Origin: a phage | Sequence record: NC_100372.1 | Length of the DNA stretch: 64,000 bases | Reading direction: 5' to 3' (one strand) | In this document: positions 38,555 to 51,386 of the stretch, in pieces | Position numbering within the stretch: position 1 is the first letter of the stretch | How the letters are laid out: every line of letters begins with the position of its first letter | Notes under the pieces: model-generated | Seen by the model: the letters and a program-made list of their open reading frames with translations, nothing else | What the model was told of the DNA's origin: nothing | Databases searched by the model: none | Position numbers and translations under genes: made by a program

Positions 38555-38674
38555 AGCACCGAGCCCACATAAGTTTATCATGCTAAAGCATGGCCTGAAG
38601 GGGCAAACGTGCATAATTCCATCGTATTGGAACGTATAAACCCCGTTCACACTCTCATTTCCAGAGGAGATTTC

Positions 38675-38890
38675 ATGAAAATAGAAATATTTGGTGGGGC
38701 TGACAACACTCGTGGCCTGATTTACCTTGAATTCGATGAATCTTACCTGCCAGAGGTGTTAAATATAGATGCTGTTGCGGAAGCCCTTGATGTAGACCCT
38801 AAAGATCTCTACTCCCGTGCTGAGATTGATGGTTGGGAAGAGACTCTGAACATTGATTTCAGTGAAGTAGTAGATGAACCTTTGGACTGA
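38675..38890 (+). CDS. Hypothetical small acidic protein (MKIEIFGG... N-terminus)
   Basis: Start at MKIEIFGGADNTRGL with a GAGGAG RBS; last gene of the plus-strand block. Confidence 0.45.
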   Translation: MKIEIFGGADNTRGLIYLEFDESYLPEVLNIDAVAEALDVDPKDLYSRAEIDGWEETLNIDFSEVVDEPLD

Positions 38891-40355
38891 CACACAAGTC
38901 TGCTTTGCAGGTTTAGCTGCTCAGCTAAGGTTCTGGAGTCACCTATAACATCTTCCAACTAAATTTCCTACCAACACAGTTACTTACCCACCACACATGA
39001 CTGTTTGCTTGTTTAGTGAGCAGTCATCCCTTGACATTCTTGCCTATCTTGATAAAATTAAGTTCTTCTCTTTTCTTTTACCGAGTAATTCGGGTTTTCT
39101 GTTCTCTTCGGTTTGAAGGGGTATGGAGATACACCTGAGTGAACAGGGTGAACAACCGAACCTTTAGCTATGGCATTAGCATGGCGAAGCGGACGGGTGA
39201 CGAAAGAGGGGCCGGAGGACACCAGTCACTGCCATATAGTATATGGGTGATAACCTGAAGAGTCTGAATAAGTGTTTAAGTACCAGTCAGAGGAAAAGGT
39301 GAATGGTAGCCGAAGGGGGAGGGGGGTTTCTTATATCTTTAATTTGTATACTTTATATACACTTGTAAACCAATTCAATTAGGATCTGTTTACCACACAA
39401 AGTGGATGGAGACAAATATCACCTATTAAACTTGAATTATTTATAGAAAATACCACAACACCGCTTAAGTCTTTGATTTTACACACAAATCTTACAAATA
39501 TCCTACCTCCATATTTAACATACTTGTAACATATTCCATATCCTACCTGCCTGATCAATTTACTCCCACCACATTCCCACATTTTCCCTGTCTGTACTAC
39601 CCCACCCCCGCCGGGAGTCCCGTCATATCTGGCTTTCCAGCAAATATCACACCCACAAATATCATCACCTGAAGAGGGTTTCATCCCATAATACCTGCCT
39701 TACCTGAAGAGCGCTTCATACACCACCTAAATTTTTTAATTGACCCCTCCCCGCCGCCGGAGAGGTTGGCTTTTCCCACACAGGCCTGAAGAGTCAGCCA
39801 GAAATATCTGAACAGGTCCAGTTATGCCCCGATTTTGTGCTTGTCCTACAGGAGTGCTGCCCTGTCAGGAGCCGGTAGCGACTGGAGTGCTGCCAGGCGG
39901 ACGGAATGGGAATACTTCTCATTTTTATAATAATTCTCAAATATCGAGGCAGTGAGGCAAATTAATAGGCCAGGCCGTTCACACAGTGGCACAACATTTG
40001 CAATCTATCTTGTGGGAGTGAATGAGAATACCTATCATTGTGAGAATGGTTATCATTACGGGCAATTTAACATAATACCTATTATGCGCACCACTGGCGA
40101 TACATACAGGGATTGATAACATGGGTTACTGTTTACGCACATAACAATTATATTTATTACTATTTGTGTGGGATATAGTTAGCAACCAATAGATTAGATA
40201 TTGACCTGCAGACTTCTGACCGTCCAGACGTCTAAACGCCCACACAACAAGGATTATACATACATTCCTGAATGTAAACAGGGCCGCAAAAAATGCTACC
40301 ATACCAGTTTGTAAATTTTTCATGCAGCACTTGACAAAGAGGAGAAAAACTTGTC

Positions 40356-40417
40356 TGACACAATGTGACAAAATTGCCACTTTTGACACTTTTACCTTTG
40401 ACACAATATGACACAAT
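40356..40417. repeat. Cluster of five TGACA(C/A)(A/T)(A/T)T repeats
   Basis: tgacacaat 40356, tgacaaaat 40366, tgacacttt 40384, tgacacaat 40399 and 40409; inside the ORF-free region. Confidence 0.6.
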
Positions 40418-40443
40418 AACGGCTGTTACTATTCCATATCTCA

Positions 40444-40503
40444 CTGTTTACGTATAGACTGTTTACGCCTGAATAGTTTACGCCCAAACTGTTTACACAG
40501 AGA
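40444..40503. repeat. Four tandem 15-bp repeats with core TGTTTACRC
   Basis: ctgtttacg 40444, ctgtttacg 40459, tagtttacg 40474, ctgtttaca 40489 (exact 15-bp period); extra copies at 40129, 40900 and 40943. Confidence 0.8.
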
Positions 40504-40510
40504 TGATAAG

Positions 40511-40750
40511 CCATGACATTCGTTTGCATGAAAACAATTAACAAGTTAATAATATATGACATAATATAAAAGCAGGGCAACTATTAGAAGATCTATAGTT
40601 GCCTTGCTTGTTATGTCATGATTAACTAAATACAAGGCAACTATGATCTGAATAATAGATTGCAGAAAAACTATCACGGGGGTGATTGTTACTGCTTTTA
40701 TATTATGTCGCGACTCCGTCGCGCCATGCCATTCGTTTGCATAGTTGCCT
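40511..40750. repeat. Nested dyad-symmetric element
   Basis: Perfect 18-bp inverted repeat gacataatataaaagcag (40558-40575) / ctgcttttatattatgtc (40692-40709); inner palindrome ggcaactat-N10-atagttgcc (40576-40603); GGCAACTAT again at 40636 and inverted at 40741; flanking direct repeat cattcgtttgcat (40517 and 40731); palindrome cgcgac-tcc-gtcgcg (40709-40723). Confidence 0.8.
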
Positions 40751-41357
40751 TATTGTTACAGGTAAAACAATTACATTATTAATTATTTCTTATCTTTCTC
40801 TTAGTCATCTAATGATTCCAGTCAGTATAGTAATGTACAGTAAACATTAGACGACTAAAGATTTCTCTGTGTATAATAACTTATCGTGACAATTTCGAAC
40901 TGTTTACGAAAAATGTTGACACCTGAGCTGATTTATGTTATGCAGTTTACACGAATAATTATTTTATGCAGGTATTGACTATTCCGTTATTCTGTGGTTG
41001 GAATAAATACTTTGCAGACTATAGAATGGCGTGCGTACGTGAATTCTGAGATCTGGCGGCTATAGTTATACTCGATTTTTCGCGTAGAACACGCTTTCGA
41101 TGCTGTGTAAGTGTATGACTTATAAAGATTTTTAGTTGTTGACAAGATATTGGAGATGTGCATCAGGTTAAAATTTGTGCAATAGCGGCATTACGTGCAC
41201 TTTTGGGAGAGAAAACGGGTAAAAATGGCCCTGCTACCACACAATGAAAGATTATGCAATGGTTATTTTCCATGTATATTTGTACAGTATGTGGGATTGA
41301 TGGCTAGTCAATTATTCCACTTGCCAGGTAGGGCCGTTTATGGTAGGAGAAGAGCAG

Positions 41358-41386
41358 ACAAAAAGAAAGGGGCCTTTAAGCCCCTT
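41358..41386 (-). terminator. Intrinsic terminator for the minus-strand block
   Basis: Plus-strand aaggggc-ctttaa-gcccctt; on the minus strand it is followed by tctttttgtc; sits just past the stop of 41405-41824. Confidence 0.65.
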
Positions 41387-41404
41387 GATAATTCAGTTAA
41401 GAAA

Positions 41405-41824
41405 TTATAATGATTCGTATATTTCAAAAATCCGATTTGCCAGGTCGTTACGGTAGCGGAATTTTTCATCGCGCTTGATCATTAAATCCTTATAGCCGTA
41501 CTCTTTAAGCACTTCATTAACTTTATAGCGGCATACCTGCATATTATCTTGAGCGTCACCAATAAACTTGTTGCTGTGGTGCATTGCTTTAATTTCTTCT
41601 TCCAGGACCAGGGCAACTACCCGGACCGGATCAAGCTGGTAGGCGGTAACATCTATGCGGCATTGTAGACGGCTTTTAACGTCTGCCACCGGATATACTG
41701 CAACCTCTTCCCCGTCAACATTGACAATAATTAGTTTACCATCGATTTCGAATCCTTTCGCCGCCGGACCGTGACAAAAAGCGTTATCAAAGCTATATGC
41801 CGGATTATCAGATTTAATGTTCAT
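41405..41824 (-). CDS. Hypothetical protein
   Basis: 139-aa ORF, last gene of the minus block. Confidence 0.45.
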   Translation of the reverse strand: MNIKSDNPAYSFDNAFCHGPAAKGFEIDGKLIIVNVDGEEVAVYPVADVKSRLQCRIDVTAYQLDPVRVVALVLEEEIKAMHHSNKFIGDAQDNMQVCRYKVNEVLKEYGYKDLMIKRDEKFRYRNDLANRIFEIYESL

Positions 41825-50438: not shown

Positions 50439-50652
50439 TTTTGTACCTCCTCTTCAATTGTTACCTGCCCTGTAGCATAGGCCTACCAGGTTTGCAAGCT
50501 TTCACTCTCTCCTACCTGGTCAGTCAGGTCCTGCCAGGCTGGCCCCGCCAGGTTGCAGCGGTTGGTGTATTATGTTAGAAAAAATTTTTGAAGAAGTGTT
50601 GACAGCGGCCCCGCCAGGTGGCACAATATACCTATCGAAAGGACGGCAGGCA

Positions 50653-50845
50653 CCGGTGACGGGGGAGACAACCACCGGGGATGGGCGCTGCATAAAATGA
50701 GAACGGTTATCATTATCATTTAAAAATTTATGCAAAAAATCCTTGCTTTCTTTGTCCTGTGTGATACTATAATAACAAGCCGGGGCAACAGGGGCCGGGA
50801 GACAATCACCGGGGGTGCCCGTTATTCTGCAAACGAGAATGATTA
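50653..50845. repeat. Two copies of a roughly 60-bp composite element: GGGAGACAAYCACCGGGGRTG, about 15 nt, GAGAAYGRTTATCATT, then an A/T-rich tail
   Basis: Copy 1 at 50653-50710 (gggagacaaccaccggggatgg ... gagaacggttatcatt), copy 2 at 50787-50845 (gggagacaatcaccgggggtgc ... gagaatgattatcatt). Confidence 0.75.
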
Positions 50846-50980
50846 TCATTCAAAATTCTAAATGAGAACTTTTCGCATTTCATAAATTTAGTTAGCATGC
50901 TAATTACCTACCGTGACAATTCTATATAAAATAATACCTCCTTAAATATTTCCATATACAAATTTTAAAAATCCATTTCC

Positions 50981-51150
50981 GAAAACGAAAAATCGATTTC
51001 GTCCCCAAAAATTTCAGGTCGAGCTCCGGAACGATTTCCAGAAAATCTGATTCAGAAAACGAAAAACAGATCGAGTACTAAGAAATTTATCGAGAAAAAT
51101 TTTCAGAAAATTCAATCTTTGAAACGAAAAACAGATCGAGTACTGAGAGA
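50981..51150. repeat. Imperfect tandem direct repeats, about 66-74 bp period, core GAAAACGAAAAA(C/T)(A/C)GAT(C/T)
   Basis: gaaaacgaaaaatcgatttcg 50981, gaaaacgaaaaacagatcgagtact 51055, gaaacgaaaaacagatcgagtact 51121; ATCCATTT(T/C) also recurs at 50971, 51324, 51341 and 51396. Confidence 0.75.
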
Positions 51151-51386
51151 GATGTATCAAAACCTGCTGAGAATAATGGGTTTATTGTTATAAAGGGTCA
51201 AAGGTAAGCTGGGAAAGTTCCGGTAGAAGGGTGAGAGTATGTGCGGAAAATCTGGAATAGTAACTTAAAGTACGGTGCGAACGATAGAATGAGCAGCACA
51301 TCTTATCGCGCCTGTCTTGAAAAATCCATTTTAGTTTTCGATCCATTTTCTGATTTTCTAAGAATTTTAAAATATCCGGCTAGGTA

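Follow-up and report, generated by a model that had tools for sequence, protein, structure and literature searches.

A noncoding stretch of an rV5-like Escherichia phage as the probable junction of its chromosome ends

In phage T7 the chromosome carries a direct terminal repeat (DTR) of 160 bp, and a stretch of ~1.2 kb across the junction is poor in open reading frames (ORFs). At least 12 units of 7 nt, C[CAT]TAAAG, occupy positions 175-355 of the T7 record (NC_001604, from which these features were taken); they start within ~15 bp of the left DTR, and there is no gene until 925 after the left repeat. At the other end the promoter phiOR (39229), 549 bp upstream of the right DTR (39778), reads into the junction. 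The packaging recognition sequences of T7 lie within 5% of the termini, and a pause of RNA polymerase at the concatemer junction recruits the terminase, starting packaging (PMC3276506). Here we describe an ORF-free stretch at positions 38891-41404 of a phage DNA of 64,000 nucleotides (record NC_100372.1; this whole DNA is called the window and all coordinates refer to it). Quite probably the phage chromosome has its terminal region here, the place where two genomes join in a concatemer, equipped with the cis-acting signals of a short-DTR (T7-type) phage.

The stretch matches 121 Vequintavirus records (rV5-like Escherichia myophages) at 86-98% identity, and by its sequence we class the phage as an rV5-like Escherichia myophage (Vequintavirus). 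About 19 UNVERIFIED records named 'Campylobacter phage' are ordinary vequintaviruses as well. By alignment, 38891-41404 is the same locus as rV5 104013-106618, for which the rV5 genome paper noted 'no observable ORFs from 104013-106618' and drew a box marked "non-coding" (Kropinski et al. 2013). The absence of ORFs has thus been on record, unexplained, since 2013. An earlier reading of the letters of this DNA (hereafter the original prediction) had proposed a replication origin and/or a noncoding RNA locus. It missed the physical chromosome ends, which by analogy with T7 would explain most of the anatomy.

The terminal repeat and the ORF-free DNA around it

Evidence for chromosome ends comes from the places where the records of relatives open and close. 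In EdH4 the first 459 nt are identical to the last 459 nt, the first base falling on 39896 and the last on 40355. The repeat is found at both record ends in five relatives (EdH4, Gotham, HdK5, ECP2309 and YN3) and is annotated in the Gotham record as repeat_region 1-459; the records of ECP2303, Pr121LW, bov11CS3, bov25_3 and OX460980 break at one DTR boundary. Altogether, at least 10 of the ~120 relatives' records start or end exactly at 39896 or 40355, and the records that open or close inside the region use just two points, 1006 and 1465 of the query, which correspond to these two positions. Because at least 10 records share identical boundaries, the ends appear to be fixed. A terminal redundancy of 458 bp has been reported for EdH4/HdK5 (Korf et al. 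2019). We identify 39896-40355, 460 bp here, as the predicted DTR of the virion DNA, and the ORF-free stretch as two chromosome ends that would be joined as in a concatemer or a circularised assembly. Across the 13 genomes of our conservation alignment (the window phage and 12 relatives), the DTR is 89-98% identical.

Two relatives carry duplications at this place. In Shigella phage CM1 (L015, 1425-2470) a perfect 523-bp tandem duplication starts exactly at the left DTR boundary and ends just past the TGACAH array described below. In phage I29 (L023, 827-1966) a 546-bp duplication is joined via a 120-nt palindrome in the middle of the DTR. Neither has the look of a real internal duplication; each rather resembles a trace of the physical ends, or of mis-assembly at that place.

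That 38891-41404 holds no credible ORF, as originally claimed, agrees with our analysis. Twenty-eight mechanical ORFs of at least 30 amino acids overlap the stretch. Outside the near-invariant part 38997-39258 none is intact in all 12 aligned relatives, the best kept being 39979-40122 on the minus strand (11 of 12) and 40886-40978 on the plus strand (9 of 12). An excess of substitutions at the third codon position is absent from every ORF of the region in the 13-genome alignment; the same test on a real flanking gene, 38609-38890, gave 13/10/33 for the three codon positions. The flanks are also as predicted. The plus-strand gene ends at 38890, and the minus-strand gene 41405-41824 belongs to a block closed by a predicted intrinsic terminator on the minus strand (41386-41357; 8-bp stem with 5 GC pairs, T run), which is t164 in Table S4 of the rV5 paper. 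No transfer RNA or transfer-messenger RNA was found by scanning the window, and Rfam scans of the region and of the whole window gave nothing meaningful. Conservation across the 13 genomes is very uneven: the flanking genes are 73-90% identical to the window, and parts of the ORF-free stretch, namely the palindrome block and the promoter block, exceed them. The idea that the stretch is functional and dense in cis-acting elements is in this way sustained.

Concerning annotation, most matched GenBank records have nothing under the match, and a few pipelines place 'hypothetical proteins' of 30-60 amino acids there. NHEP1 has 16 of these inside the ORF-free region, and in APCEc02 a 44-amino-acid ORF inside it is labelled 'structural protein'. 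An 87-amino-acid neighbour is labelled 'DNA translocase FtsK' in relatives' annotation; Pfam finds nothing in it.

In the model that we favour, virion DNA would begin at 39896 and end at 40355, and 39896-40355 would thus be carried at both ends. Both flanking gene blocks would be transcribed toward the chromosome ends and halt before them, with intrinsic and probably Rho-dependent stops holding operon transcription out of the ends. At the boundaries, the TGACAH and GTTYAC arrays to the right of the DTR and the ACWGGAGTGCTGCC repeats to its left would bind or position the terminase, or accessory factors, where the DNA is cut. The conserved nested palindromes, which lie 155-400 bp inside the left end, possibly form a hairpin or cruciform that takes part in end processing or in duplicating the DTR. 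Finally, a strong host-type promoter ~830 bp upstream of the right-end DTR would drive a near-invariant transcript of ~270 nt toward the junction; this element, positionally equivalent to T7 phiOR, may serve packaging initiation or priming. Roles are assigned to the arrays, the palindromes and the C-rich tracts by analogy, and the pairing of proteins with elements, like the role of the transcript, is proposed here. The terminase gene apparently lies outside the window, as judged from mapping onto rV5 coordinates.

Several points weigh against this model. The DTR position is deduced from the records of relatives and not from the phage's own DNA, and the common start points of these records could partly reflect depositors copying a convention. 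Two reports (on the bov phages and on BpE1AUH) give PhageTerm calls of vequintaviruses as circularly permuted or headful; such calls can arise with transposase libraries, yet they remain in conflict with fixed ends. The duplicated unit of CM1, at 523 bp, exceeds the 459-bp EdH4 repeat by 64 bp, which may reflect a right cut site that varies from strain to strain or an error in the CM1 assembly. We rejected the I29 duplication as evidence for ends, its inverted junction in the middle of the DTR looking like an assembly artefact. As to mechanism, the action of a terminase or another DNA-binding protein at the arrays is a proposal. The RNA polymerase pause of T7 is not literally transferable, since rV5-like phages use the host RNA polymerase. 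The parallel with T7 and Phapecoctavirus, which was observed directly, is one of architecture only, the noncoding sequences not being homologous.

The promoter and the near-invariant block

Upstream of the right-end DTR we found a near-consensus sigma-70 promoter on the plus strand (39031-39058; TTGACA-16 nt-TAAAAT with an extended -10 TG, 11/12 consensus matches), which the original prediction had missed. It is aimed at the left DTR boundary, ~830 bp downstream. In the most divergent contig obtained (L017, from IMG/VR) the hexamers and the TG are kept and the spacer has changed both in sequence and in length (from 16 to 18 nt). Kept hexamers with a free spacer are the pattern expected of a working promoter. 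The -10 region, TGATAAAAT, is identical to that of the rV5 promoter P074; the promoter table of the rV5 paper has no entry inside the non-coding box. Just upstream, at 38997-39027 on the plus strand, lies a hairpin with a 13-bp stem (-16 kcal/mol, z = -4.5), invariant in 12/12 aligned relatives and carrying two TGTTT(G/A) half-motifs. It may close the plus-strand operon as a 3' stem-loop, or act as an operator.

The promoter is followed by a purine-rich plus-strand block of ~270 nt (39066-39332), which ends with GGGGGAGGGGGG-TTTCTT. Its column identity is 94-100%, against 73-90% in the flanking genes, and the edges of conservation are sharp, one near the predicted transcription start and the other at 39332, where identity drops right after GGGGGAGGGGGG-TTTCTT. 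This block is a candidate noncoding RNA, or a candidate primer or packaging transcript. Coding of a small protein was considered and rejected, substitutions in the block being mostly non-synonymous and without third-position bias. Within the block, GGGTGA/AGGTGA recurs between 39116 and 39327 (at 39147, 39196, 39245 and 39299, with spacings of 49, 49 and 54 nt). The intervening sequence is unrepeated, and the recurrence hints at a periodic organisation of an RNA or of a protein-binding DNA surface.

What the block does can be read in several ways. It is possible, although we do not favour it, that the ~270-nt RNA from 39066-39332 is a free-standing regulatory or anti-host noncoding RNA, unrelated to end processing and merely housed at the ends. 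Its anatomy is gene-like: the promoter is conserved, conservation sets in and stops abruptly, and there is no sign of coding. The several GGA/GGAG motifs of its purine-rich body could let it act as a sponge for a protein or for the ribosome. However, the fold of 39066-39332 does not differ significantly from shuffles (z = -1.3), and its 3' end has no terminator hairpin (z = +0.5), only a G-run and a U-run. The block is so nearly invariant that covariation cannot be counted, and the few variable sites are not compensatory in the minimum-free-energy fold. Against Rfam 15 it had no match reaching the gathering score or E <= 1, the best of the weak hits having E values of 4.8 and 7.5, and it is absent from Phapecoctavirus, whose terminal architecture is alike. 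Searches for homologs in E. coli genomes gave none; a search of IMG/VR for divergent copies returned 2 contigs, both ordinary vequintaviruses, and a literature search for Vequintavirus transcriptomics or noncoding RNAs yielded nothing relevant.

More tentatively, the block might represent a novel type of phage RNA element associated with the chromosome ends, either an RNA that forms a primer (an R-loop or G-rich RNA) or a transcript that licenses the junction. In its primer form, the G5AG6-U3 end would define a replication start beside the right terminus. In its licensing form, host RNA polymerase transcribing into the concatemer junction would license cutting by the terminase, as a host-polymerase version of the phiOR/junction-pause system of T7.

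Promoter-dependent primed origins are known from T7, T4 and ColE1 (RNA II), and phiOL and phiOR of T7 are 'replication promoters'. An R-loop-type origin near the right end, which we consider doubtful, would work along these lines: the 39031 promoter would make a G-rich RNA ending in GGGGGAGGGGGG-UUU, which would stay hybridised and prime DNA synthesis. The conserved promoter with its free spacer, a near-invariant transcribed block ending exactly at a G-run and a T-run, and a GC skew of +0.30 followed by a segment of 32-34% GC are all consistent with it, as is the comparable place of T7 phiOR, 549 bp from the right DTR. The 3' end of the block also resembles the mitochondrial CSB II (G5AG7-UUU). 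A primase-helicase like gp4 of T7 is present in the phage, as stated in the rV5 paper. Yet no G-rich elongation zone follows the G-run, the CSB II resemblance concerns low-complexity sequence, and 270 nt of strict conservation exceed what a primer needs.

The strand-asymmetric composition that had been claimed for this side of the stretch is real, with a GC skew of +0.30 at 39100-39299 and of -0.53 to -0.57 at 39400-39699. The noncoding transcript of the original prediction fared less uniformly: it is plausible for 39066-39332, but a 'long structured transcript' over the G-rich and C-rich halves lacks support. Long-range pairing between these halves in one transcript of 767 nt was rejected, as its fold was no better than shuffles (z = +1.1). 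Downstream of the block come an AT-rich variable spacer (39333-39479, GC ~0.33, with one IHF-consensus site at 39466-39478) and a C/A-rich, G-poor tract on the plus strand (39480-39800), whose three ACCTGAAGAG copies (39668, 39703 and 39785) are invariant in relatives. The four copies of CCTGAAGAG noted originally were found again, at 39254, 39668, 39703 and 39785. This motif occurs 8 times in the window against 0.54 expected; the four copies outside the region sit in ORF-dense sequence and may be readable there as Pro-Glu-Glu codons. From its composition, we infer that 39480-39800 could be a Rho-utilisation-like zone stopping rightward transcripts before the chromosome end. Together with the mirror-image C-rich sense strand at 41350-40990, it would likely provide Rho-dependent backstops that keep transcription off the ends.

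Arrays, palindromes and other motifs around the repeat

All the repeat systems listed in the original prediction are present, within a base or two of where it had put them. On the right side, the TGACAH array (40356-40417, plus strand) begins with its first unit at the first base past the DTR. The five TGACACAAT-like repeats that had been claimed here start at 40356, 40366, 40384, 40399 and 40409. With one mismatch allowed, TGACACAAT is not enriched window-wide; 3 exact copies and 1 copy with one mismatch cluster within 62 bp. Across 17 genomes the array has 2-6 units, the first always flush with the right DTR boundary. The TGACAC units were also considered as -35 boxes of real promoters and rejected, inspection of the sequence revealing no usable -10 at 16-18 nt.

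The next array, (N)GTTYAC with a 15-bp period (40443-40503, plus strand), was called by TRF at 40443-40496 (period 15, 3.6 copies, 74% matches) and has 1-7 units at a spacing of 15-16 bp in the 17 genomes. Four 15-bp repeats with the core TGTTTACRC had been predicted; the array holds, and the exact core is found in only two units, the other two differing by one base. The three dispersed TGTTTAC copies are at 40130, 40901 and 40944, with another at 39387 and two more on the opposite strand; 8 of the window's 18 copies fall in the region. From the right DTR boundary to the next conserved anchor the distance is 114-219 bp in 17 genomes. On the left, an indel hot spot with two copies of ACWGGAGTGCTGCC (repeat family D17) abuts the DTR boundary at 39846-39895; it shows 20- and 24-bp indels among relatives and an identity of 0.59. 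Identity is lowest just outside both boundaries (0.59 at 39851-39900, 0.56-0.69 at 40351-40500), where the indels are unit-sized.

Beyond the arrays lies a highly conserved nested-palindrome block (40510-40760, identity 0.93-1.0). Its perfect 18-nt inverted repeat, already noted in the original prediction, has one arm at 40558-40575 and the other at 40692-40709, separated by 116 nt (134 nt from start to start). It also contains a 20-nt direct repeat that had been missed, GCCATGNCATTCGTTTGCAT, at 40510 and 40723, and a small hairpin, GCGAC-tcc-GTCGC. Four copies of GGCAACTAT, in both orientations, all lie in 40576-40749 (174 bp), against 0.5 expected for the whole window. Compared with shuffles, the self-complementarity of the block reaches z = -8.9 and -8.1 on the two strands. 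Chung, Nardone and Hinkle reportedly proposed in 1990 a hairpin intermediate at the T7 junction for duplicating the repeat, and this intermediate would make a plausible counterpart for the palindrome block.

The block varies among relatives by insertion. A segment of ~45 bp that most of them carry is missing at 40554 in the window phage (in comparison with L001, L002 and L008-L014). In many relatives it consists of a GC-rich hairpin, GGTGACC-ttt-GGTCACC, followed by CCTTCGGG, and is annotated as a terminator in Murica and Alma. A further 33-bp insertion occurs at 40610 in rV5, A147 and C9. Between the block and the terminator lies AT-rich, conserved ORF-free DNA (40761-41356) with dispersed TGTTTAC at 40901 and 40944 and, on the reverse strand, at 40846. 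Read in the sense of a leftward transcript, it is C-rich and G-poor.

The original prediction had put forward an iteron-type origin, which would lie at 40356-40750; the GTTYAC and TGACAH arrays would bind an initiator, and the AT-rich DNA and palindromes would form the unwinding element. Tandem repeats in the same orientation do adjoin AT-rich DNA and dyads here; the dispersed TGTTTAC copies are concentrated in the region (8/18 of those in the window), and the array is present in all relatives. We nevertheless hold such an origin improbable, and the evidence points elsewhere, although replication from a start at or near the chromosome ends is compatible with all that follows. The arrays begin with the first base past the DTR, which is the predicted packaging cut site, and they are the least conserved segment (identity 0.56-0.69), with 1-7 units and a 15-16 bp spacing that gives no helical phasing. 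With 2 relaxed DnaA boxes and 1 IHF consensus in the region, neither is enriched within the window. The six flanking proteins have no Pfam match and only PHROGs of unknown function, and no Rep/O-like gene is adjacent, although a distant initiator is possible. The skew analysis in the rV5 paper tracked transcription direction only. In addition, T7 has a similar array beside its DTR while its annotated replication promoters lie elsewhere, and because T7 shows the same arrangement, arrays can be seen as a normal companion of short terminal repeats.

Inside the DTR, at 40024-40057 on the plus strand, are two adjacent GAGAAT-N3/4-TATCATT motifs that resemble a Fur box (13 and 15 of 19 matches). Four copies of the corresponding 16-mer, GAGAAYRNYTATCATT, stand in the window where 0.09 are expected, two of them in the DTR and the others at 50699-50714 and 50835-50850; they agree with the Fur box consensus of E. 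coli at 13-16 of 19 positions. Relatives keep the outer bases of the motif but not its centre, and the DTR of Phapecoctavirus (Mt1B1_P17), which is otherwise non-homologous, has a similar motif. GAGAAYRNYTATCATT could be a Fur site or a site for a phage protein. That these motifs and the other arrays recruit or sequester host proteins is very unlikely: the excess of the 16-mer, its consensus matches, six matches of at least 13/19 in the DTR against 0.22 in shuffles, the conserved half-sites around a variable centre and the motif in the Phapecoctavirus DTR speak for it, but AT-rich near-palindromes match easily, and 2-3 sites, which could equally belong to a phage protein, are too few to titrate Fur.

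Two further observations were made elsewhere in the window. A second ORF-poor, repeat-dense stretch lies at 50440-51190, within a minus-strand block of small genes, and is organised in two units. Each unit has a sigma-70-like promoter (for example TTGACA-17-TGgCACAAT, ~50599-50627), a GC-rich element of ~60 nt sharing GGGAGACAAYCACCGGGG, and the motif GAGAAYGRTTATCATT; repeats of GAAAACGAAAAACAGATCGAGTACT follow the two units at 51000-51150. For 50440-51190 there was no Rfam match, and folds were not significant. At 158-243, near the start of the window, a 21-bp unit with the palindromic consensus GTGTCCGTATCACGGACAGTA is repeated four times in tandem; the array also scores as 1.9 copies of 43 bp.

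Comparison with known systems

Few coliphages are isolated more often than those of the rV5 type, and cocktails for therapy and biocontrol make use of them. Their records in GenBank have mostly been opened at an arbitrary point, with this region left blank or filled with spurious small ORFs. Recognising the ends would give the correct start, end and length of the genome, including the extra DTR copy, would explain the long-noted 'non-coding' box, and would tell engineers which 2.5 kb to keep for packaging. The boundary arrays, the palindromes and the promoter block offer concrete cis-acting elements for the study of T7-style repeats in a large myovirus that depends on the host polymerase, and the conserved block behind the promoter is a clearly delimited candidate for a new phage RNA that can be put to the test.

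A terminal repeat or concatemer junction is a known kind of element, and its presence here was implicit in database records and in two papers. These two papers (Kropinski et al. 2013; Korf et al. 2019) concern the same locus, but neither links the non-coding box to the redundancy or gives an account of the arrays, palindromes, promoter or conserved block. The anatomy of the terminal region is not described in the literature that we searched, and the promoter-driven block of ~270 nt could be the one new part.

With iteron origins (lambda ori, plasmid RepA-type) the region shares tandem direct repeats near AT-rich DNA and dyad symmetry. It differs from them in a 15-16 bp period with strongly variable copy number and sequence, in arrays flush with the predicted packaging cut site, in the lack of an adjacent or overlapping initiator gene, and in DnaA boxes that are not clustered.

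Comparable terminal regions occur beyond this genus. Klebsiella phage KPP-1 (Vequintavirinae) has a DTR of 514 bp with two-fold coverage and a T7-type PhageTerm call, and likewise an ORF-free terminal gap. In Phapecoctavirus a homolog of the gene 41405-41824 stands beside a gap at 89% amino-acid identity; in phAPEC8 the ORF-free gap after this homolog is 1.5 kb long, and the record of Mt1B1_P17 opens and closes with the same 328 nt, a 328-bp DTR that lies within that gap. The order of elements (gene, terminator, C/A-rich tract, palindromes, DTR) is common to Phapecoctavirus and the window phage. Phapecoctavirus differs in that the genes past the gap run in the same direction instead of converging, and its repeat motif is of GTCGCTAC type. 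Comparison of the gaps revealed no nucleotide homology beyond chance, and no counterpart of the 39031 promoter block was detected in that of Phapecoctavirus.

In comparison with T7, the present phage is a 137-kb myovirus working with the host RNA polymerase, and a sigma-70 promoter stands in place of a phage-polymerase promoter. There is no sequence homology, and the DTR is three times longer. Genes converge on the ends from both sides, whereas T7 transcription runs in one direction, away from the left end. Here there are two different array motifs and a large conserved palindrome block, and the ~270-nt block is, to our knowledge, far more conserved than anything comparable in T7. The likeness lies in the layout: in both phages a short exact DTR is set in ORF-poor DNA, arrays of short units begin beside it, and a promoter, phiOR in T7 and that at 39031 here, is directed at the junction.

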